In this document: one piece after another, positions 1,764 to 30,677 of the stretch
Layout: each line of letters begins with the position of its first letter
How positions within the stretch are numbered: the stretch's first letter is position 1
From: a virus
Strand: one strand, 5' to 3'
Length of the DNA: 32,663 nt
IMG/VR virus record: IMGVR_UViG_3300000352_000001
Location: 1 to 32,663 of that record
The notes under the pieces: model-generated
The model's database searches: none
What the model was told of the DNA's origin: nothing
The model's input: only the letters and a program-made list of their open reading frames with translations
Position numbers and translations under genes: made by a program

Positions 1764-2279
1764 TTATTCCTCCTTCCATCCGAACATGCTGATCTGTACG
1801 AGTTCCATTCTCTTCCTTGCTATCTCAGCATATTCCGGGTTGATTTCGATTCCGACATACTTTCTATTCATAGTGCTTGCCACGAAGCTTGTGGTACCTG
1901 ATCCTAAGAACATGTCTAAGACTGTACCGCTTGGCTTGCATCCTGCTTCTATGATTGTTTCTACCAGTTCCTTTGGGAACGTTGCGAAATGTTCGAATGG
2001 ACTTTTATGCGTGTTGATTGTCCACACACATCGTTTGTTTCGCATTAGGTTGTCATCTATGAGCTTTGGTTCTTGCTGCTTCTTGACTCTTCTTCCACCG
2101 TTCAGTGGTCCTATGACTCCCTTACTCCCCCTTACGACTTCTTTGTAGTTCTTCTGCATGGGTTCTTTAGCTTGGTTGAAGTAGTATGTTGTATTCTTTG
2201 TGAAGAAGTATATCTTTTCAAAGTCTACTGTGAACCTGTCCTTTACGCTCGATGGCATGGCATTTGGTTTGTACCACAC
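1764..2279 (-). CDS. N-terminally truncated beta-class N4/N6 DNA methyltransferase-like protein; retains the SAM-binding motif I but lacks DPPY motif IV
   Basis: Starts at GTG with WYKPNAMPSSVKDR...FEKIYFFTK, which is normally mid-protein. It ends with LDMFLGSGTTSFVA...GIEINPEY. No (D/S)PPY is present in this ORF or in the upstream ORF. Confidence 0.7.
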   Translation of the reverse strand: MWYKPNAMPSSVKDRFTVDFEKIYFFTKNTTYYFNQAKEPMQKNYKEVVRGSKGVIGPLNGGRRVKKQQEPKLIDDNLMRNKRCVWTINTHKSPFEHFATFPKELVETIIEAGCKPSGTVLDMFLGSGTTSFVASTMNRKYVGIEINPEYAEIARKRMELVQISMFGWKEE

Positions 2280-3781: not shown

Positions 3782-4251
3782 GACTCTTCCTCTATCTTTC
3801 TAGCAATCTCTATGATTCGCTTTCTTTCTTCTTGATTGATATTCGATACTGCATTCATAAATATTTCATATGCTTCCTTGTATAAATCATAGTGTCTTAT
3901 TTTGATGCATTGAGCTTTTGATTCGTGAAGTGCGTTTGCTATCTTATTAACTTTATCGATGGTTTCATTGAATGGTAGCTTTAGTATTTCTTCATGTCCT
4001 AGGAGTTCAAGTGCTTCATCGATGATGATTTCAAGTCCTTCCGTTACTTCAATTGCAATCGTATTGATGTCTTCAATGTAATATCTATGCATTCTAATTT
4101 GCTGTGTTTTATGAATTTGCACATCATAAAACTTACCTGGATCGAGTTTTGTTTCCGATATGACATAGTAGTTTTGATTGCCGTTTGTAAATAAATGGTT
4201 GTTTCCTTGTTCATTATAATCATCAGTTACTCTTACTAATTTTATGATCAT
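3778..4251 (-). CDS. Hypothetical protein
   Basis: 157-aa ORF, translationally coupled. Confidence 0.5.
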   Translation of the reverse strand: MIIKLVRVTDDYNEQGNNHLFTNGNQNYYVISETKLDPGKFYDVQIHKTQQIRMHRYYIEDINTIAIEVTEGLEIIIDEALELLGHEEILKLPFNETIDKVNKIANALHESKAQCIKIRHYDLYKEAYEIFMNAVSNINQEERKRIIEIARKIEEES

Positions 4252-5075
4252 GTCTTCACATCCTTTTTAAATCTTACATTTACAATGGCTTCTTTTTTAA
4301 TACGGCCATGGCATATGTCAAGTATCGTTTGATAACTTACGTATAGTGCTTTTGCTGCTGTCCTAGATGATCTGTACTCTTTTATGACGTTTCCTTTTTC
4401 GTCTAGTAGTTGGATTTCTTTGGATTGGCTTTTTTGATATCCTGTTAAGATTCCATGTTTTGATTTTTCTAGTAGTTCTAAATTATCAGCTCTACAGTTT
4501 TTGTAGTTACCATCTATGTGATGAATGTATAAATTGTCAGTTGATCTTATAAATGCTGTCGCAACTATTTTTGCGAGCTTGACATATTTCATTCCTTCAG
4601 TTCCATGCATTTTTACGAACAGGTGGTATCTATATTTTGTTTTGGACTTGTTCCATATCTTCTTCCTATATGGTCTAAGTACTAGTGCTACATCTTTTAA
4701 ATATTTTTTTAGGATGCCTTGGTTACTTATTTCGTAACCGGGATAACCTTCAACCGGAAGCCATTTGATTTGAGCTTGACCGTTTACTACCTTATCCCAC
4801 ATTTCGCTGTACCTTGGATGGTCTTCGTAGTGCTTTGTGAACCAGGATCTGATTGCAATTCTATCTTCCCTTGTTTTAGCATTCATCCATCTCTTAGCTG
4901 CTATTGATGTAGCTTGTTCAATTGTTCTAGCTTCATATCTTTTTCCCAGGATCTTTTTTATCTCTTCTTCTGGTATTCCTGATTTTATGAGTTTAAGTGT
5001 TTTTGGGTAGCTTACTTTATTCTTAATACACCATGAACGTGCTGATTCATTATTGATTTGATATTTTGTCATCAT
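4248..5075 (-). CDS. HNH homing endonuclease (NUMOD4-like, HNH, and a C-terminal DNA-binding module)
   Basis: WLPVEGYPGYEISNQGILK (NUMOD4-like), HHIDGNYKNCRADNLELL (HNH), and a C-terminal SSRTAAKALYVSYQTILDICHG that is HTH/NUMOD1-like. Confidence 0.75.
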   Translation of the reverse strand: MMTKYQINNESARSWCIKNKVSYPKTLKLIKSGIPEEEIKKILGKRYEARTIEQATSIAAKRWMNAKTREDRIAIRSWFTKHYEDHPRYSEMWDKVVNGQAQIKWLPVEGYPGYEISNQGILKKYLKDVALVLRPYRKKIWNKSKTKYRYHLFVKMHGTEGMKYVKLAKIVATAFIRSTDNLYIHHIDGNYKNCRADNLELLEKSKHGILTGYQKSQSKEIQLLDEKGNVIKEYRSSRTAAKALYVSYQTILDICHGRIKKEAIVNVRFKKDVKT

Positions 5076-5445
5076 CGTCTTTTTTGAACTTTCTTTGACA
5101 GTTTTCTTGATGTGTGACTATCTCTAGATTGCTTTGTTTGTTATTTCTTTTTTTACGATCGATATGGTCGATTGATAGTCCGTTATCTATCAACGAGTCT
5201 ATATGCGCAAGGTTGACTCCATTGATATCGCCAAAGAGTTCTACTACTTTGATGTGTGTGAAGTGCCACTTTGTTCCTATCTTAATTCTGTAGTACCCAC
5301 TGTTATTTTTAAATTGTTTGATGATTCTTTTATATGTCAGTGAGTAACATCTTCCATAGTTGCTTAGCATGTGTTTAGTTCCCAAGAACCTCCACACTTC
5401 ACCTTTTTTATTCTTTATGTTACTTGGTTTTTTCTCATTGCCCAT
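5050..5445 (-). CDS. HNH homing endonuclease (NUMOD4-like and HNH)
   Basis: GEVWRFLG...LSNYGRCYS, then SIDHIDRKKRNNKQSNLEIVTHQEN. Confidence 0.75.
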   Translation of the reverse strand: MGNEKKPSNIKNKKGEVWRFLGTKHMLSNYGRCYSLTYKRIIKQFKNNSGYYRIKIGTKWHFTHIKVVELFGDINGVNLAHIDSLIDNGLSIDHIDRKKRNNKQSNLEIVTHQENCQRKFKKDDDDKISNQ

Positions 5446-6004
5446 GGCTGCTACCTCCTATTTCATCACCGAATGCATCCCATCCGATTCTCTCTTTTCT
5501 TGCAAACACTTCATACTTTAATGTATCAGGGAACATTGATTCTATGAGTTCATATGCTGCTTTTGGTTTTTTACTGTGATCTGAGTTGGGTTCATGAATA
5601 ACTGATGCGTGATGTCCGGGATTGATTGGCATTTGAATGTGTCCGGGTTTATACCACCATTGCAGGTATTCGTGGGTCATTCTAACTGTGAATGCTGGGC
5701 ATGGTCCGTTTCCTTTTGACCATATAATATCTGTATGCTTTTTGTATCCTAGACTCTTCATTATTTTATCTAGTTCAATATAATACTTTTGGATGCACCA
5801 TACAAACAGGTTTGCTTCTGGCGATGCAGTTGTTATTTCTTGAATGTATTTTTTAATTTCATCCAATGACATCGTTTTATATGGAACAGGCATTCCTGAT
5901 GAATTTGGTTTCTTTTTCATTTTTCCGCCACGCATGAGCTGCCATGGTGGATCTAAAAGTATTATGCCGTAATTTCCTTTTCCTGCAGGTGTTTGATATA
6001 TCAT
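5435..6004 (-). CDS. MT-A70 family N6-adenine DNA methyltransferase
   Basis: GIILLDPPWQ (DPPW catalytic motif). The size and layout are typical of MT-A70 phage methylases. Confidence 0.8.
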   Translation of the reverse strand: MIYQTPAGKGNYGIILLDPPWQLMRGGKMKKKPNSSGMPVPYKTMSLDEIKKYIQEITTASPEANLFVWCIQKYYIELDKIMKSLGYKKHTDIIWSKGNGPCPAFTVRMTHEYLQWWYKPGHIQMPINPGHHASVIHEPNSDHSKKPKAAYELIESMFPDTLKYEVFARKERIGWDAFGDEIGGSSHGQ

Positions 6005-10340: not shown

Positions 10341-10580
10341 CTATTTTTGGTTAATGACTAGTATGCTTTTTACATCTTCTTGATAGAACACTTCTTCTTT
10401 GACTTTAAAGTATTCACTCAGCTTCTCAACATCTTTTGGGAATATCTTACTTTTCCCTGTCACTTTGTGTGACATCGCAACCCTAGTTATGCCTAGGATT
10501 TTTGCTAATTCATCCTGCTTTATATTGCCAATATGCATGAGCGCTTTTACGATTTCAGGGTTTGCGGACTTGATTGCCAT
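10341..10580 (-). CDS. Small HTH DNA-binding protein (Cro/regulator-like)
   Basis: IKQDELAKILGITRVAMSHKVTGKS. It is the first gene after a consensus promoter. Confidence 0.65.
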   Translation of the reverse strand: MAIKSANPEIVKALMHIGNIKQDELAKILGITRVAMSHKVTGKSKIFPKDVEKLSEYFKVKEEVFYQEDVKSILVINQK

Positions 10581-10607: not shown

Positions 10608-10636
10608 ATTATAGTCGCATCCGCTTACATTGTCAA
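10608..10636 (-). promoter_or_regulatory. Consensus sigma70/sigA promoter TTGACA-N17-TATAAT
   Basis: Minus-strand -35 at 10636-10631 and -10 at 10613-10608. The palindrome CATTGaCAATG overlaps the -35. Confidence 0.75.
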
Positions 10637-11525: not shown

Positions 11526-11840
11526 TCACAGTGTGATGATTGCTGCGTATCTGGCATAATCGTATCCTTCCGAATCAATCAGGATACCGTAATTATATCC
11601 ATCGCATGTCACTAATAAGCAGTGCCACATACCTTTATCATCTGTGTACATCGTTTCTTTATTTTCTATGATGAACTTTTTATCATCTAGTGGGTTGTTT
11701 ATTAAGTCTTCAAATTCTTCTTTTGTGACCTGGATTTGATATTCTATGATGTACTTTGTTTGTGGCAATAAGTCTTCTCTTTGTGGCTTTGTTTTAAATG
11801 TTGCATATCCATGTATGCTTTTTGGTATTGATTTATTCAT
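11526..11840 (-). CDS. Hypothetical protein
   Basis: 104-aa ORF ending ...WHCLLVTCDGYNYGILIDSEGYDYARYAA. No function known to me. Confidence 0.45.
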   Translation of the reverse strand: MNKSIPKSIHGYATFKTKPQREDLLPQTKYIIEYQIQVTKEEFEDLINNPLDDKKFIIENKETMYTDDKGMWHCLLVTCDGYNYGILIDSEGYDYARYAAIITL

Positions 11841-12279: not shown

Positions 12280-12412
12280 CCATGTATGCTCGAGGATGTT
12301 TTTTATTTTTATTTCTTTTTTCTACTAGTTTTTCAGCTTTGGTATAGCTTCTTGTTTTTAGTATTTTTGCTCCTGCATCAATCACAACGTACTTCTTTGT
12401 TTTGCTCATCAT
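12260..12412 (-). CDS. Hypothetical 50-aa basic protein; below the ORF-track size cut-off
   Basis: Hand translation gives MMSKTKKYVVIDAGAKILKTRSYTKAEKLVEKRNKNKKHPRAYMDEERED. Its start overlaps the upstream stop (ATGA), and it fills an otherwise empty 129-bp gap. Confidence 0.4.
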   Translation of the reverse strand: MMSKTKKYVVIDAGAKILKTRSYTKAEKLVEKRNKNKKHPRAYMDEERED

Positions 12413-12732
12413 TTCACTCTTTCTATTAGTATAATAAGATTTTTTCCTGTGATTAATTCGTAGTTTATCTTATCTACAATTTTTTCTACAATTTTTAATC
12501 CTTTTTTATACTTGATTACATCATCTTTTGTAGATGTGAATTCGATGACTATTGGGTTTGATCCTATCTTTGAAAAATCAGTATCTTCCCAATTCCATTC
12601 CAGTGTTATGCCTTTTTTTTCTTCAATGACATCGATTGCACGCCATCTAGGATCAGAGTCTATTTTTGTTAGATAATCTGGCTTCCACACATTCTTATTA
12701 AACACATTTTGAAGTTGTTCTATGATTCTCAT
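12409..12732 (-). CDS. Hypothetical protein immediately downstream of hammerhead copy 1
   Basis: The ATG lies 6 nt after the GGAGG that directly follows the repeat's 3' tail. Confidence 0.5.
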   Translation of the reverse strand: MRIIEQLQNVFNKNVWKPDYLTKIDSDPRWRAIDVIEEKKGITLEWNWEDTDFSKIGSNPIVIEFTSTKDDVIKYKKGLKIVEKIVDKINYELITGKNLIILIERVK

Positions 12733-12742
12733 TAATTACCTC

Positions 12743-12814
12743 CTAGCCTATCTCATCAGCACTGGGTGGCTGCTCCAGTGGACTAGAGCCTGTGGGTTTG
12801 CTCTAGTTTCGATT
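12743..12814 (-). ncRNA. Type II hammerhead self-cleaving ribozyme motif, copy 1; predicted cleavage between 12781 and 12780
   Basis: Minus-strand RNA: AAUC-GAA-[ACUAGAGC-AAACCCACAG-GCUCUAGU]-C^-[CACUGG-AGCAGCCAC-CCAGUG]-CUGAUGA-GAUAGGCUAG. All 11 core positions and the A15.1-U16.1 pair are present. Confidence 0.75.
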
Positions 12815-12815
12815 T

Positions 12816-13079
12816 TTAAATTTTGATTATTTCTAATTTGATTAATTTTTTAACTACCACTGTACCTTGGATTGCATCGCTTTTTTCTACCATGTGCTTT
12901 TCTACTTTTTTGATTAGCTCATCAGCTTTGGTTCCATCAGCAACTTCGACTGTGAAGTTTGATTTCCATGTTTCATTTGGACTTTTGATTTGGTGTGATT
13001 CACCTGTACCTATGTTTTTCATTGTGACATATTCATTCTTTGGTTTTTTTTGATATTCGCATCTAACTTCTACTACCAT
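12816..13079 (-). CDS. Hypothetical 87-aa protein between hammerhead copies 2 and 1
   Basis: GGAGG-N8-AUG. The stop UAA lies 2 nt before the next repeat. Confidence 0.5.
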   Translation of the reverse strand: MVVEVRCEYQKKPKNEYVTMKNIGTGESHQIKSPNETWKSNFTVEVADGTKADELIKKVEKHMVEKSDAIQGTVVVKKLIKLEIIKI

Positions 13080-13091
13080 TTTAATTTCCTC

Positions 13092-13163
13092 CTAGCCTAT
13101 CTCATCAGCACTGGGTGGCTGCTCCAGTGGACTAGAGCCTGTGGGTTTGCTCTAGTTTCGATT
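13092..13163 (-). ncRNA. Type II hammerhead ribozyme motif, copy 2; predicted cleavage between 13130 and 13129
   Basis: Identical in sequence to copy 1 over the whole motif. The upstream ORF's stop codon (13162-13164) overlaps the 5' edge of the motif. Confidence 0.75.
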
Positions 13164-13425
13164 ATTCGTATGATTCTAGTATTTCTTGGTATTTATCATA
13201 AGCTTCTTGTAGTGCATCTTTGACTTCTTCTAGTCCTTCAATTTGTGATTCTATTTTTTCTATTTTTTCTTGCTCTTTCTCAGTGTTTTCGCCTGATTCT
13301 CTTTCATATGCTTTTTCTTCTATTTTCTCTTTTTTCTCTTCTAGGTTTGGGATGTATTCTTCTTCTATCTTGTTTATTTCATCCTGTAGTGTTTCCATTT
13401 TTGCTTCTATTTGCTTTTTTGTCAT
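13162..13425 (-). CDS. Highly acidic 87-aa predicted coiled-coil protein
   Basis: Hand count gives about 29 Asp+Glu against about 14 Lys+Arg. Heptad-like EEKKEKIEEK... repeats. Flanked by hammerhead copies 3 and 2. Confidence 0.5.
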   Translation of the reverse strand: MTKKQIEAKMETLQDEINKIEEEYIPNLEEKKEKIEEKAYERESGENTEKEQEKIEKIESQIEGLEEVKDALQEAYDKYQEILESYE

Positions 13426-13437
13426 TGTTTTCTCTTT

Positions 13438-13509
13438 CTAGCCTATCTCATCAGCACTGGGTGGCTACTCCAGTGGACTAGAGCCTGTGGGTTTGCTCTA
13501 GTTTCGATT
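13438..13509 (-). ncRNA. Type II hammerhead ribozyme motif, copy 3; predicted cleavage between 13476 and 13475
   Basis: Same as copies 1 and 2 apart from one substitution (plus-strand a at 13467, so loop I reads AGUAGCCAC). Confidence 0.75.
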
Positions 13510-13510
13510 T

Positions 13511-13687
13511 TTATTGTTCTTCGGTTATTTCATCTAGGCTGTATGTTTCGATTTCTTCTTCGGTTAATTTTCTATCGTATTCTATGATGTCGTAGTATGT
13601 ATTGGTTGGATCATCATGTCTTCTTATAAATCCGTTCATTGGTTGGCATCCTATGCTGAACCCTCTTAGTCGCATTCCGTATTTCAT
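13511..13687 (-). CDS. Hypothetical 58-aa protein, first gene of the early operon; start revised
   Basis: The track start at 13726 lies inside the -10 box. The ATG at 13687 follows GGAGGAATAAA. The product begins MKYGMRLRGFSIGCQPMNGF... Confidence 0.55.
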   Translation of the reverse strand: MKYGMRLRGFSIGCQPMNGFIRRHDDPTNTYYDIIEYDRKLTEEEIETYSLDEITEEQ

Positions 13688-13724: not shown

Positions 13725-13757
13725 ATTATATCAAATAGCGTTTACTTAGTCAACGCT
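13725..13757 (-). promoter_or_regulatory. Near-consensus promoter TTGACT-N17-TGaTATAAT (extended -10) with an overlapping inverted repeat AGCGTT-N9-AACGCT as candidate operator
   Basis: -35 at 13753-13748 and -10 at 13730-13725. The inverted-repeat arms are 13737-13742 and 13752-13757. The site is immediately downstream of a terminator. Confidence 0.8.
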
Positions 13758-13775: not shown

Positions 13776-13819
13776 AATAAAAAAAGCCCTTATAGATTGG
13801 TGTCTATACAAGGGCTTTA
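13776..13819 (-). terminator. Rho-independent terminator ending the late (structural) transcription unit
   Basis: Minus strand AAAGCCCTTGTATAG-ACACCAAT-CTATAAGGGCTTT followed by TTTTTTT. It starts 3 nt after the stop of 13822..14409. Confidence 0.8.
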
Positions 13820-13821
13820 TA

Positions 13822-14409
13822 TTATTGGAACAATGTTGCGATTGTCTTTGCAGCTGCTTTGATTGCATCCAGTTCTTCTAGCTTCTTTTCTAGCTCCTGG
13901 ATCTTCTCATTTGCTATCCCAAGATTTTCAAGTGCTTCGTCTTTCTTGGCTTCGCATTCAATGAGTTCATCATAGCGTTCTTTACCGATAGTAACTGTTT
14001 CTGGTTCTGGTTCGGTTGGTGCTGTGACTTCTTGTTCCGTTTGGACTTCTTCGGCTTCAAATTTGGCTTCCTCCGCTTTTTCAGCTACTGGTGTGAGTTC
14101 TTCTTCGTCTTCGATGATTTCAACCGCTACAGGAGCGTTTGGAACGTTTTCTTCTTGGACGTTAAATCTTTCAAACTCTACAGTGCCTCTTGATGCAATG
14201 ATTTCTTTCAATTCATCAATTGTGACACCTAAGATTGAGCATGCTCGAACTGTGTCGATTGCTTCTGGTCCACCAGCATTGTTGATGATATAAAGAGCGC
14301 CATTTTCAGTGACACCTACAGCAACCTTTGTTAGAGATTCGTTTGTAAGTTTCACAAGCTCTTCTGCGCTTCGGATTTTACCATAGGATGCTAAGTTAGT
14401 TTTACCCAT
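13822..14409 (-). CDS. Hypothetical protein with an acidic, coiled-coil C-terminal half; start revised
   Basis: The ATG at 14409 follows GGAGGTGAACTCC. It is the last gene of the late operon. No lysin motif recognised. Confidence 0.5.
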   Translation of the reverse strand: MGKTNLASYGKIRSAEELVKLTNESLTKVAVGVTENGALYIINNAGGPEAIDTVRACSILGVTIDELKEIIASRGTVEFERFNVQEENVPNAPVAVEIIEDEEELTPVAEKAEEAKFEAEEVQTEQEVTAPTEPEPETVTIGKERYDELIECEAKKDEALENLGIANEKIQELEKKLEELDAIKAAAKTIATLFQ

Positions 14410-15175
14410 GGAGTTCACCTCCGCTATCGTTGATGATCATATCGAGTGAATTTACTTCTAGTCCAATCTCATCCGACCTTGCTTTGAGTGCATTCAATTG
14501 CGCCTCATAACTATCGTATCTAATTTGCTGCTCTGCTGTTAATGCACCAGCTTTTAATTTCTTGATACGATTTACTGCTTCAATAACGTCATGATTTAAA
14601 TCAGTAATAGTTTTGACGTCATGATCTATGGATTTGAGTTCTTTAAGCAATGCGTGTTTCTTGTCTTTTGCTTCCTTAACTCTCTTCGCCTTTTCCCCTA
14701 GCTCTTTACCAAATGAAAGGATACCGGGTGCTGCTGAGAACCCTGCAAATACAAGGATTTCAACAATGTATTCGCTGAACGGTGATAGCTCAGGTACGAT
14801 GACTGAGAGCACGCCTAAAATAATTAGAACGACCGTTAAAACGAATGATAAAATTTGTACTACACTTAATCTTTTTGCCCATCCAAACATGTTACTTCCT
14901 CCTTTTTTGAATGATCTTAATAGTCTAACTGCTAATTTTGCCTTAGTTTCTGGATATAATACCTGATCAGCAGTTGCTGCTGCTGATGTCATTTTCTCTA
15001 CGTTCATCTTACCACCTCTCATTACTTTGCCCATGGCTACAAGTAATAGCACTATAGAGAGCATGTAAAATGTTTTTTGAAGCCATGCTAGTTCTATGCT
15101 ATCCATTAAACCAGCAATGGCAGTAAAGATGTAATATAGGATTAACTCAATTAATGTTCGTAATTTCCCCCACAT
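14402..15175 (-). CDS. Multi-pass membrane protein with a C-terminal coiled coil
   Basis: About four hydrophobic helices (for example ILSFVLTVVLIILGVLSVIV), followed by a charged coiled-coil tail. Confidence 0.55.
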   Translation of the reverse strand: MWGKLRTLIELILYYIFTAIAGLMDSIELAWLQKTFYMLSIVLLLVAMGKVMRGGKMNVEKMTSAAATADQVLYPETKAKLAVRLLRSFKKGGSNMFGWAKRLSVVQILSFVLTVVLIILGVLSVIVPELSPFSEYIVEILVFAGFSAAPGILSFGKELGEKAKRVKEAKDKKHALLKELKSIDHDVKTITDLNHDVIEAVNRIKKLKAGALTAEQQIRYDSYEAQLNALKARSDEIGLEVNSLDMIINDSGGELHG

Positions 15176-28937: not shown

Positions 28938-30677
28938 TTATACCTCCTGTCCCTTTTGTCCTAGGTAGAACCCTATGTCATCTGCTATTCTAACATAACA
29001 GTTCAAAATCGTTGCAAAGCCGTCTATTTTGCGCTCACGCTGATCATTGATTTTCTTAGGCATATAGTTCCCATTTCTATCTTGTTCCAGCTGTACGTTT
29101 GATAAACACCACTTCGTGATTGGGTTGTTTTGATAACATAACATCTTTTGTCTAAGATGTGCTTCGATCAGCTGCATAGGAATACTAAGTGTTTTGGCTC
29201 CTTGGGCAGTTGCAACTAAGCATGTATCTCTTTGATATCCTCTCGATACTAAATCTGATATAAGATATTGAGCTGAATATCTATCGTATTGGATGTACTG
29301 GTACATCCATCCCTTTTCTCTAAAGTTGTTACTGATGTAATCAGCTATATCCTGGTATTCGATGAGTTCAGTACCGGATATTCTTACAAGACCACGTTCT
29401 ACCCATGCTGCCCATGGTATTTTGTTGTTCTTGTCTTGAAGTCTTTCATTGTAAAATTTAGCAGTGATCCAGTACATTGTTATTGCAATTGCTCGAGGCT
29501 TTTTACCTTCAATCATATCTTCCTTGTCGAATAACATTGTAGTGAAACTTGTAAGGTCACCAGTTCTTGACAAGTCTAACCCACCTATAACAAATGAATT
29601 ATCGAATTTCTTCAATTGTTCTTCTGTGTACTCTATCTCATTATTCAAGTCATCAAAGTTTAACCATCCTTTTCCTGTGATACCACGAATGTTAAAGTCT
29701 TTGGTTAGGACGGTATTCATATAGTTCTTATCCGATTCAGCTCTTTGCACTTGATCCTGAATATATTTTACTTGTTTTATAACGCCTAGCGATGGATTTG
29801 CTTTTATCCAATTCTTTTCATCAGCTATTTCTTCTATGGAGTCCATTTCATAGATTAGTGGTAGTAGCGTATCGTCCGGGCTAATTCCTTCTAGGATATT
29901 AACTGCGTGATCATACACGTTGTCATATAGTCCTTCTCTTACGAAGCCTGCAGTACTAATCATCGAAATAATAGGTTGCTGTCTGGCTGATGTTGACTGT
30001 TTTAGAATATCATAGATTGCTCTTTTTAGTTCGTGGACTTCATCGATAACACCTAAGCTTGTATTTAAACCATCGAACGTTTGAACGTTTGATGATAATA
30101 CCTTGGCCAACGAAGATGATCCTTTAAGCTTGATACTTTTTGGTGGTGCTATTCTATATGTAAATATCTTAGCTAGTTCTCTTTCTCTCTTAATCATATC
30201 GATTGCTTCTTCGATGATTCGTTGTGCTTGGCTCGTTACGGTTGCTGCAGCATAGACTTCGGCTCCTTTTTCGTGGAGTATACCAAAGAGCGTTAAAGGC
30301 GCATTCATTGTGGTTTTACCGTTTTTACGTGCTACGACTAGAAAACTCTCAGTAAATCTTCTTTGATGTGTATCTCTTCGCAGCGTTCCGAATAGTGTTT
30401 GAGCCCATGCTTTTTGCCATAGCATTAGTTCTATTTTTTTACCTGCCCATTCACCTTTTGATTGGCGACAAAACGTTTCTGAAAACTTGATAAATTTTAA
30501 ACCTGGATTTGGGTTAAAGTAATACAATGGATGCTCGTCATTTATGATCGGTTTCATCCATTTTAGATATACTTTTTTTACTTTTTTTGATACTAAGATT
30601 CGTCCGGACTCAATCTCTTCGATGTACTCTCGGATATAGTTTGGTTTATCTTGATAATCCATTCTAGTCCTCCTCAT
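28938..30677 (-). CDS. Terminase large subunit
   Basis: Walker A-like VVARKNGKTT, Walker B GVIDEVHE, and nuclease aspartates GGLDLS and KIDGFAT. Confidence 0.9.
   Translation of the reverse strand: MRRTRMDYQDKPNYIREYIEEIESGRILVSKKVKKVYLKWMKPIINDEHPLYYFNPNPGLKFIKFSETFCRQSKGEWAGKKIELMLWQKAWAQTLFGTLRRDTHQRRFTESFLVVARKNGKTTMNAPLTLFGILHEKGAEVYAAATVTSQAQRIIEEAIDMIKRERELAKIFTYRIAPPKSIKLKGSSSLAKVLSSNVQTFDGLNTSLGVIDEVHELKRAIYDILKQSTSARQQPIISMISTAGFVREGLYDNVYDHAVNILEGISPDDTLLPLIYEMDSIEEIADEKNWIKANPSLGVIKQVKYIQDQVQRAESDKNYMNTVLTKDFNIRGITGKGWLNFDDLNNEIEYTEEQLKKFDNSFVIGGLDLSRTGDLTSFTTMLFDKEDMIEGKKPRAIAITMYWITAKFYNERLQDKNNKIPWAAWVERGLVRISGTELIEYQDIADYISNNFREKGWMYQYIQYDRYSAQYLISDLVSRGYQRDTCLVATAQGAKTLSIPMQLIEAHLRQKMLCYQNNPITKWCLSNVQLEQDRNGNYMPKKINDQRERKIDGFATILNCYVRIADDIGFYLGQKGQEV

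Follow-up and report, generated by a model that had tools for sequence, protein, structure and literature searches.

What function is served by three nearly identical 72 nt elements that lie in consecutive gaps between the genes of a single phage operon? The question is raised by a viral DNA of 32,663 nt (IMG/VR record IMGVR_UViG_3300000352_000001, positions 1 to 32,663; here termed the window), which matches to terminase, capsid and DnaD-like proteins identify as that of an uncultured tailed phage with all of its genes on the minus strand. A first-pass annotation of the same DNA had read the elements as type II hammerhead ribozymes that divide the operon's transcript into single-gene RNAs. 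The analysis described here makes it highly probable that they are functional type II hammerheads, present on the sense strand of the operon and cutting its transcript; cleavage, and an effect on gene expression, are what we infer from the sequence, fold, covariation and genomic context of the repeats.

Three intergenic copies of the type II hammerhead motif

The three elements are located on the minus (coding) strand:

12743-12814, minus strand: type II hammerhead motif, copy 1, between the second 87 aa gene and the 107 aa gene (RF02276, 35.7 bits)
13092-13163, minus strand: type II hammerhead motif, copy 2, between the two 87 aa genes (RF02276, 35.7 bits, E = 1.2e-4 in a 5 kb search)
13438-13509, minus strand: type II hammerhead motif, copy 3, between the DarA_C gene and the gene for a putative coiled-coil protein of 87 aa (RF02276, 38.6 bits; descriptor parse)

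Copies 1 and 2 are the same sequence, and copy 3 differs from them by one substitution, C to U at element position 43, within loop I; the coordinates, strand and single difference originally given for the family were therefore correct. A repeat finder recovered the same three-copy family in a longer form of 109 nt (83-85% identity), since the flanking stop region and ribosome-binding site are also alike.

Each copy is ordered AAUC-GAA-(ACUAGAGC-loop-GCUCUAGU)-C-(CACUGG-loop-CCAGUG)-CUGAUGA-GAU-AGGCUAG. In all three, ACUAGAGC pairs with GCUCUAGU to form an 8 bp stem III; stem I, comprised of CACUGG and CCAGUG, is 6 bp long, and the open stem II (AUC/GAU) consists of just 3 bp. The core is complete in every copy, with CUGAUGA at C3-A9, GAA at G12-A14, the A15.1-U16.1 pair and C17. 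Published rules for the acceptance of hammerheads specify three helices at the core and standard pairs at positions 10.1-11.1, 1.1-2.1 and 15.1-16.1 (PMC3088659); here, all three stems abut the core through Watson-Crick pairs, G10.1-C11.1, C1.1-G2.1 and A15.1-U16.1. The arrangement 5'-II-GAA-III hairpin-C17-I hairpin-CUGAUGA-II-3', in which stems I and III are capped and stem II is open, is the type II permutation. C17 falls at 13476 in copy 3, 13130 in copy 2 and 12781 in copy 1, such that the hammerhead numbering of this parse predicts cleavage at 13476/13475, 13130/13129 and 12781/12780. Parse, topology and predicted sites all agree with those of the first-pass annotation.

Loop I is complementary to the 3' tail, generating a pseudoknot of 4 bp in copies 1 and 2 (AGCC/GGCU) and of 5 bp in copy 3 (UAGCC/GGCUA), with a C.A mismatch in the former where copy 3 has U. 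This interaction, at first no more than suspected, is evidently real, as it covaries among relatives (UAGCC/GGCUA being replaced by UAGGC/GCCUA, UAAGCU/AGCUUA, GACC/GGUC and others). The 3 bp stem II had been flagged as the weak point of the fold, a concern that does not hold: both so short a stem and reliance on the pseudoknot are the normal design of the type II class.

Comparison with the Rfam covariance model Hammerhead_II (RF02276, gathering score 37 bits), a check proposed together with the original reading, gave a positive result. The 38.6 bits of copy 3 exceed the gathering score, and the 35.7 bits of copies 1 and 2 are slightly short of it; across the 32.6 kb window, searched on both strands, the corresponding E values are 1.3e-4 for copy 3 and 7.9e-4 for copies 1 and 2, with no match beyond these three. 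The modest scores are due to a 7 nt insertion in loop III, a 1 nt offset of stem II and pseudoknot bases that are unlike the model consensus. A descriptor requiring the core bases, the 10.1-11.1 pair and stems I and III of 4 bp or longer was matched three times in the real window versus a mean of 0.02 matches per shuffled window: the three-copy motif is not due to chance.

Relatives, covariation and position between genes

A scan of viral contigs for exact matches to the 3' part of the motif identified one related phage (L001), approximately 80-85% identical to this region of the window at the nucleotide level. It harbours two hammerheads. The first, found at the site of copy 3, has compensatory changes and a longer stem III; the second is very different, with UAGGC in loop I and GCCUA in the tail, a swap from C:G to G:C in the pseudoknot that keeps its register. 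With a looser pattern, type II hammerheads built to the same plan were detected at no fewer than 120 viral loci.

A DNA pattern specific to the family found no locus in 185,579 reference genomes and two in metagenome contigs (L164 and L165). In L164 a single gene is bracketed by two hammerheads, whose pseudoknots are UAAGCU/AGCUUA and UAGCC/GGCUA, and the high-GC contig L165 contains a type II hammerhead at 309-374 (50.2 bits) in which stem II (AUC/GAU) and the pseudoknot (UAGCC/GGCUA) are identical to those of the window. The L164 hammerheads, at 1604-1674 and 2095-2165 on the minus strand, flank a gene of 134 aa and have an identical 5' half of 33 nt; their stems I, loops and tails differ, with matched changes in the pseudoknot, giving them the appearance of chimeras or of the products of partial gene conversion. 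One gene further along L165, at approximately 775-830, a hammerhead with an open stem I (the type I layout), followed by a Shine-Dalgarno (SD) sequence and ATG, was recognised by eye; Rfam reported nothing for this motif at E <= 1.

Base pairing was assessed in an alignment (A1) of 30 relatives from phage contigs and metagenomes, in which the pairs of stems I, II and III and of the pseudoknot were counted. Paired cells amounted to 97.5% (a share raised by the choice of sequences, as considered below), versus 70.8% for shuffles and 29-37% with the partner slid by one to three columns. The covariation score was 0.681, a value reached by none of 500 shuffles, versus 0.187, and double-sided changes were present at 16 of the 20 pairs, including four of the five in the pseudoknot, and in all four helices. 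G-U pairs are also present, fitting an RNA on the minus strand. In an unselected set of 164 unique type II hammerheads, loop I was complementary to its own tail over at least 5 nt in 68 cases versus 23.6 with swapped tails. Divergent hammerheads (types b and c) in L001, L167 and L168 were missed by Rfam at E <= 1, and their assignment rests on descriptor and alignment.

The same 164 hammerheads, mostly from viral contigs, allow numbers to be put on their placement relative to genes. An SD and start codon are found within 45 nt 3' of the core in 110 of them, versus 15 +/- 4 random windows on the same strands, and at the five other loci examined nine of the ten gaps that separate successive hammerheads have the upstream stop codon -1 to 14 nt from the motif. 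The general rule is that a type II hammerhead lies after a stop codon and before the following ribosome-binding site. In the window, the upstream TAA ends 1 nt before copies 1 and 3, and copy 2 overlaps its upstream TAA by 2 nt, the first A of stem II being the last base of the stop codon; the motifs are thus closer to the preceding genes than the 2-5 nt first described. An SD starting at the end of each motif's tail or just 3' of it had also been described, which is true of copies 1 and 2 (GGCUAGGAGG), while copy 3 is followed by a weaker AAAGAGA. In the viral contigs L011, L031, L068 and L042, four to eight or more of these motifs are packed into a few kb, a far denser arrangement than that of the window, and each is followed by an SD and start codon.

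The operon and its predicted processing

The structural genes of the phage run from approximately 32 kb down to 15.7 kb and include those for the major head protein and the large terminase (28938-30677); the best matches to the latter are terminases of Bacillus and Clostridioides phages, at about 38% identity and all below 40%. The features between these genes and the end of the hammerhead region, other than the three motifs, are as follows:

14402-15175, minus strand: weakly holin-like open reading frame (ORF)
13822-14418, minus strand: ORF of unassigned function, after the holin-like ORF
13779-13818, minus strand: intrinsic terminator, a long GC-rich hairpin plus U7, closing the upstream structural and holin-like genes
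13725-13753, minus strand: sigma-70-type promoter, TTGACT-17-TGATATAAT with an extended -10 TG, matching 11/12 consensus positions
13511-13687, minus strand: DarA_C-domain protein of 58 aa, first gene of the operon (Pfam PF18789, E = 5.9e-13)
13162-13425, minus strand: Glu/Lys-rich protein of 87 aa, flanked by copies 3 and 2
12816-13079, minus strand: protein of 87 aa and unassigned function, flanked by copies 2 and 1
12409-12732, minus strand: protein of 107 aa, for which AGGAGG begins at the end of the copy 1 tail

The terminator has a folding energy of -18.7 kcal/mol (z = -5.1), with none of 200 shuffles as stable. It is followed within 25 nt by the near-consensus promoter, forming a sharp border that separates the hammerhead operon from the structural and holin-like genes. 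The promoter sequence is identical in L001, and is the probable start of the hammerhead-containing transcript; that the operon is an 'early' one can reasonably, if indirectly, be supposed from the promoter type and from its position after the terminator and before genes for regulators and replication proteins.

Transcription by the host RNA polymerase would begin at the strong promoter (13753-13725), and each motif, while being transcribed, would fold stem III, stem I, the 3 bp stem II and the pseudoknot between loop I and the tail, then cleave itself 3' of C17. Cuts at all three sites would yield an RNA of approximately 240 nt with the DarA_C gene, single-gene RNAs of 346 nt (the gene at 13162-13425) and 349 nt (the gene at 12816-13079), and a long 3' RNA starting 48 nt before the 107 aa gene, which would still be polycistronic; only the first three genes would become monocistronic. 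Because the type II topology places the cut between the two capped stems, the upstream products would end in the 8 bp stem III hairpin with a 2',3'-cyclic phosphate and the downstream products would open exactly at the 6 bp stem I hairpin with a 5'-OH, each of the latter having a fixed leader of 48-50 nt with a tail that runs into the ribosome-binding site. In minimum free energy folds the predicted RNAs retain their terminal hairpins, with the SD unpaired after copies 2 and 3 and its last bases weakly paired after copy 1. Since the two halves of the RNA would be joined by stem II alone, the products should separate, making the cut effectively irreversible, and a likely consequence would be the uncoupling of the stability and translation of each small gene from those of its neighbours.

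The start of the DarA_C gene was set at ATG 13687, after GGAGG, because the longer ORF from 13726 would begin within the promoter. DUF6329 and DarA_C domains are usually reported as parts of large anti-defence proteins, termed 'polyvalent', that phages and conjugative elements encode; here both are encoded by free-standing small genes (11526-11840 and 13511-13687, respectively) in one minus strand operon. A general association of DarA_C with hammerheads is unsupported: only one of 43 viral loci encoding relatives of the small DarA_C protein, that of the L001 contig, contains hammerheads. A further descriptor match among these loci, in L146, included a 66 nt 'stem I' and is regarded as spurious. 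The Glu/Lys-rich protein (13162-13425), probably a coiled coil, has only weak family matches and is conserved in L001 and L168. For the 87 aa protein at 12816-13079 just two homologues were found, both 63% identical and 87 aa in length, and this gene is missing from L001 along with one hammerhead. The two 87 aa proteins are not paralogues (BLASTP E = 3.4), which excludes tandem gene duplication as the basis of the 349/346 nt spacing, and the plus strand ORFs at 13050-13223 and 13411-13587 were rejected as genes, sharing peptides only because both cross the repeat. Comparison of the region with 50,697 phage records, by megablast and blastn, gave no match, and searches of viral contigs for loci encoding the 107 aa and middle 87 aa proteins found nothing.

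At least six overlapping or abutting ORFs lie 3' of copy 1, from 12732 down to 10665, the small overlapping ones after the 107 aa gene including that for the DUF6329 protein. Farther downstream are genes for helix-turn-helix (HTH) regulators, an integrase-family protein, a DnaD-like replication protein, HNH endonucleases and methyltransferases. A perfect TTGACA-17-TATAAT promoter (10608-10636, minus strand), just 5' of a 79 aa Cro-like HTH gene (10341-10580), marks a further start of transcription, 3' of the hammerhead operon. Two HNH endonuclease ORFs (4248-5075 and 5050-5445, minus strand) come directly after a DNA methyltransferase-like ORF (5435-6004) whose match to its PHROG profile is confined to the C-terminal two thirds, and a second methyltransferase-like ORF is found at 1764-2279 (minus strand); the ORFs at 4248-6004 and 1764-2279 may represent interrupted or fragmented methyltransferase genes.

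Origin of the copies, competing explanations and known systems

The metagenome contig L168 has its genes in the same order as the window, and each of its three intergenic hammerheads differs in sequence from the other two. L001 has one gene and one hammerhead fewer than the window, with the junction of the alignment inside the motif, and a different hammerhead precedes its homologue of the 107 aa gene. As relatives have different hammerheads at the same sites, the copies in the window were recently duplicated or homogenised within the genome, through either duplication or gene conversion. At the variable loop position (column 46 of A1), the U of copy 3 is the base of most of the 30 sequences in the alignment, and those with U include the L001 and L168 hammerheads located at the copy 3 site; having kept the base common to most relatives, copy 3 is probably the source of the other two. 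Near-identical neighbouring pairs, 94-100% identical and 330-400 nt apart, occur in L045, L034, L111, L042 and L117, where they flank unrelated small genes.

The third hammerhead of L168 (941-999) has A17 instead of C17 and a match of approximately 3 bp between loop and tail, and is possibly a slower or decaying variant. Two contigs assembled from short reads in Logan, L166 (from this phage, encoding an identical 107 aa protein) and L167 (a relative), both begin inside a hammerhead; assemblies presumably break at the repeats, and the number of copies may be under-counted in contigs of this kind.

A tentative, and on balance unlikely, extension is that the hammerheads double as portable cassette boundaries, small genes being gained, lost and swapped as 'hammerhead plus gene' units by recombination within the motif. 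A newly acquired gene would then come with a processing site, a leader and a ribosome-binding site of its own, the swapped genes might be anti-defence genes, and exchange of this kind would have left its recent mark in the three homogenised copies. The pattern of indels and the chimeric motifs are compatible with cassette exchange, and do not demonstrate it. Boundaries of the integron type were rejected: attC sites are imperfect inverted repeats with GTTRRRY / RYYYAAC core sites, GTTRRRY is absent from both strands of the 72 nt element, and the conserved bases are those of the hammerhead core.

A number of points weigh against the repeats being functional ribozymes. Cleavage at these particular sequences is deduced, copies 1 and 2 fall 1.3 bits short of the Rfam gathering threshold, and the percentage of paired cells in A1 is inflated, as the alignment was drawn from descriptor matches chosen for having the stems and the pseudoknot. 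The folding energy of the whole motif is unremarkable relative to shuffles (z = -0.2 to -1.8) and lends no support, as is to be expected of a short pseudoknotted motif; these energies were kept out of the evidence. Reduction of the pseudoknot from 6 to 4 bp, the length found in copies 1 and 2, slowed cleavage around 20-fold in the construct of Perreault et al. (PMC3088659), and a benefit of transcript cutting has never been shown for any phage hammerhead, the biological purpose of those in bacteria and phages being listed as open in a 2019 review (PMC6765202). Real hammerheads that are slow, conditional or decayed, leaving the transcript mostly polycistronic or cut under particular ionic or host conditions, would fit the short pseudoknots and sub-threshold scores of copies 1 and 2, the U carried by most relatives at column 46 and the L168 variant with A17 and a weakened pseudoknot; small pseudoknot changes are costly in rate, and regulated cleavage in phages has been raised as a possibility (PMC3088659). 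However, the core is intact in all copies, and their recent spread through the genome is hard to square with the keeping of a defective element, rendering this explanation improbable.

That the repeats matter chiefly as DNA, as conserved linkers that provide homology for the exchange of single-gene cassettes with ribozyme activity secondary, is very improbable. The window and L001 do differ by exactly one gene and one hammerhead, with the junction within the motif; the genes between hammerheads vary in number and identity among relatives; the L164 pair combines identical 5' halves with different 3' halves; and near-identical neighbouring copies recur in other phage contigs. Yet it is the RNA core and pairing that distant relatives conserve, not the DNA sequence, G-U pairs and the strict sense orientation point to selection at the level of RNA, and recombination at any 72 nt repeat is an expected by-product that needs no dedicated function. 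Ligation of the excised 346 and 349 nt RNAs into circular or spliced forms, by the ribozyme or by RtcB, is an idea raised by Perreault et al., who sought such products and found none (PMC3088659). The 5'-OH and cyclic phosphate ends would suit RtcB and circularisation would rebuild identical hammerheads, but halves joined by a 3 bp stem II should dissociate, and neither length is a multiple of three, as an endless reading frame would require, making this scarcely credible. Almost no weight can be given to the hairpins being terminators or attenuators, target sites of RNase III or E, or protein-binding operators that resemble hammerheads incidentally: although each repeat has two stable hairpins, neither is followed by a run of U, a terminator scan finds nothing at the repeats, and the 13 invariant core bases, three-way junction and covarying pseudoknot are specific to hammerheads.

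As putative functional type II hammerheads, the three motifs can be compared with natural examples described by Perreault et al. in 2011, which have very short stems II and a pseudoknot between loop I and the 3' tail that was proven by mutation (PMC3088659). The copies in the window share with that set, and with RF02276, the core, the permutation, the very short open stem II and the pseudoknot. They are unlike the RF02276 model in having a longer loop III (a 7 nt insertion in model terms) and different pseudoknot strands (loop GCC and tail GGC, versus UGG/CCA in the Rfam consensus), and for these reasons their scores fall to about the gathering threshold.

Clusters of hammerheads were found to flank single prophage genes, leading to the suggestion that long phage transcripts are converted into single-gene mRNAs; three tandem arrangements cleaved in vitro, tandem prophage hammerheads cleaved in vivo when expressed in E. 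coli, and a triple set surrounding ardA in Agrobacterium tumefaciens, between tail genes and marR/integrase, was cleaved in vivo too (PMC3088659). Hammerheads oriented in the same direction bracket individual small genes in the window as they do in the prophage clusters of Clostridium scindens, Azorhizobium caulinodans and A. tumefaciens (PMC3088659), with three sense strand motifs in consecutive gaps of one phage transcription unit. The gene order of the A. tumefaciens set, tail-ardA-marR-integrase, is closely paralleled by that of tail/holin-like genes, DarA_C gene, HTH regulators and integrase-family gene in the window, which differs in encoding a DarA_C-domain protein rather than ArdA and, judging by the terminase match, in belonging to another host group. 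Also unlike these prophage clusters, the window's three copies are 99-100% identical to one another. In Desulfovibrio vulgaris, three type II hammerheads have been found by cyPhyRNA-seq to cleave in vivo; these likewise adjoin hypothetical and phage-like genes, but at three separate genome locations rather than in consecutive gaps of one operon (PMC8782182).

The finding is a new example of the arrangement described for phages and prophages in 2011, and establishes no new principle. The locus is compact, with one strong promoter, three canonical and near-identical predicted ribozymes and three very small genes, the first of which carries an anti-restriction-associated domain (DarA_C), and could serve as a test case for whether genes owe their relative expression or stability to the cutting of the early transcript that carries them. 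A similar principle is exploited in engineered insulators of the RiboJ type, in which a ribozyme 5' of the ribosome-binding site produces a fixed, hairpin-led leader that uncouples expression from upstream sequence. These are synthetic, are based on a satellite RNA hammerhead of another topology and insulate the 5' side only; the type II motif of the window, by contrast, would also leave a hairpin on the 3' end of the upstream RNA.

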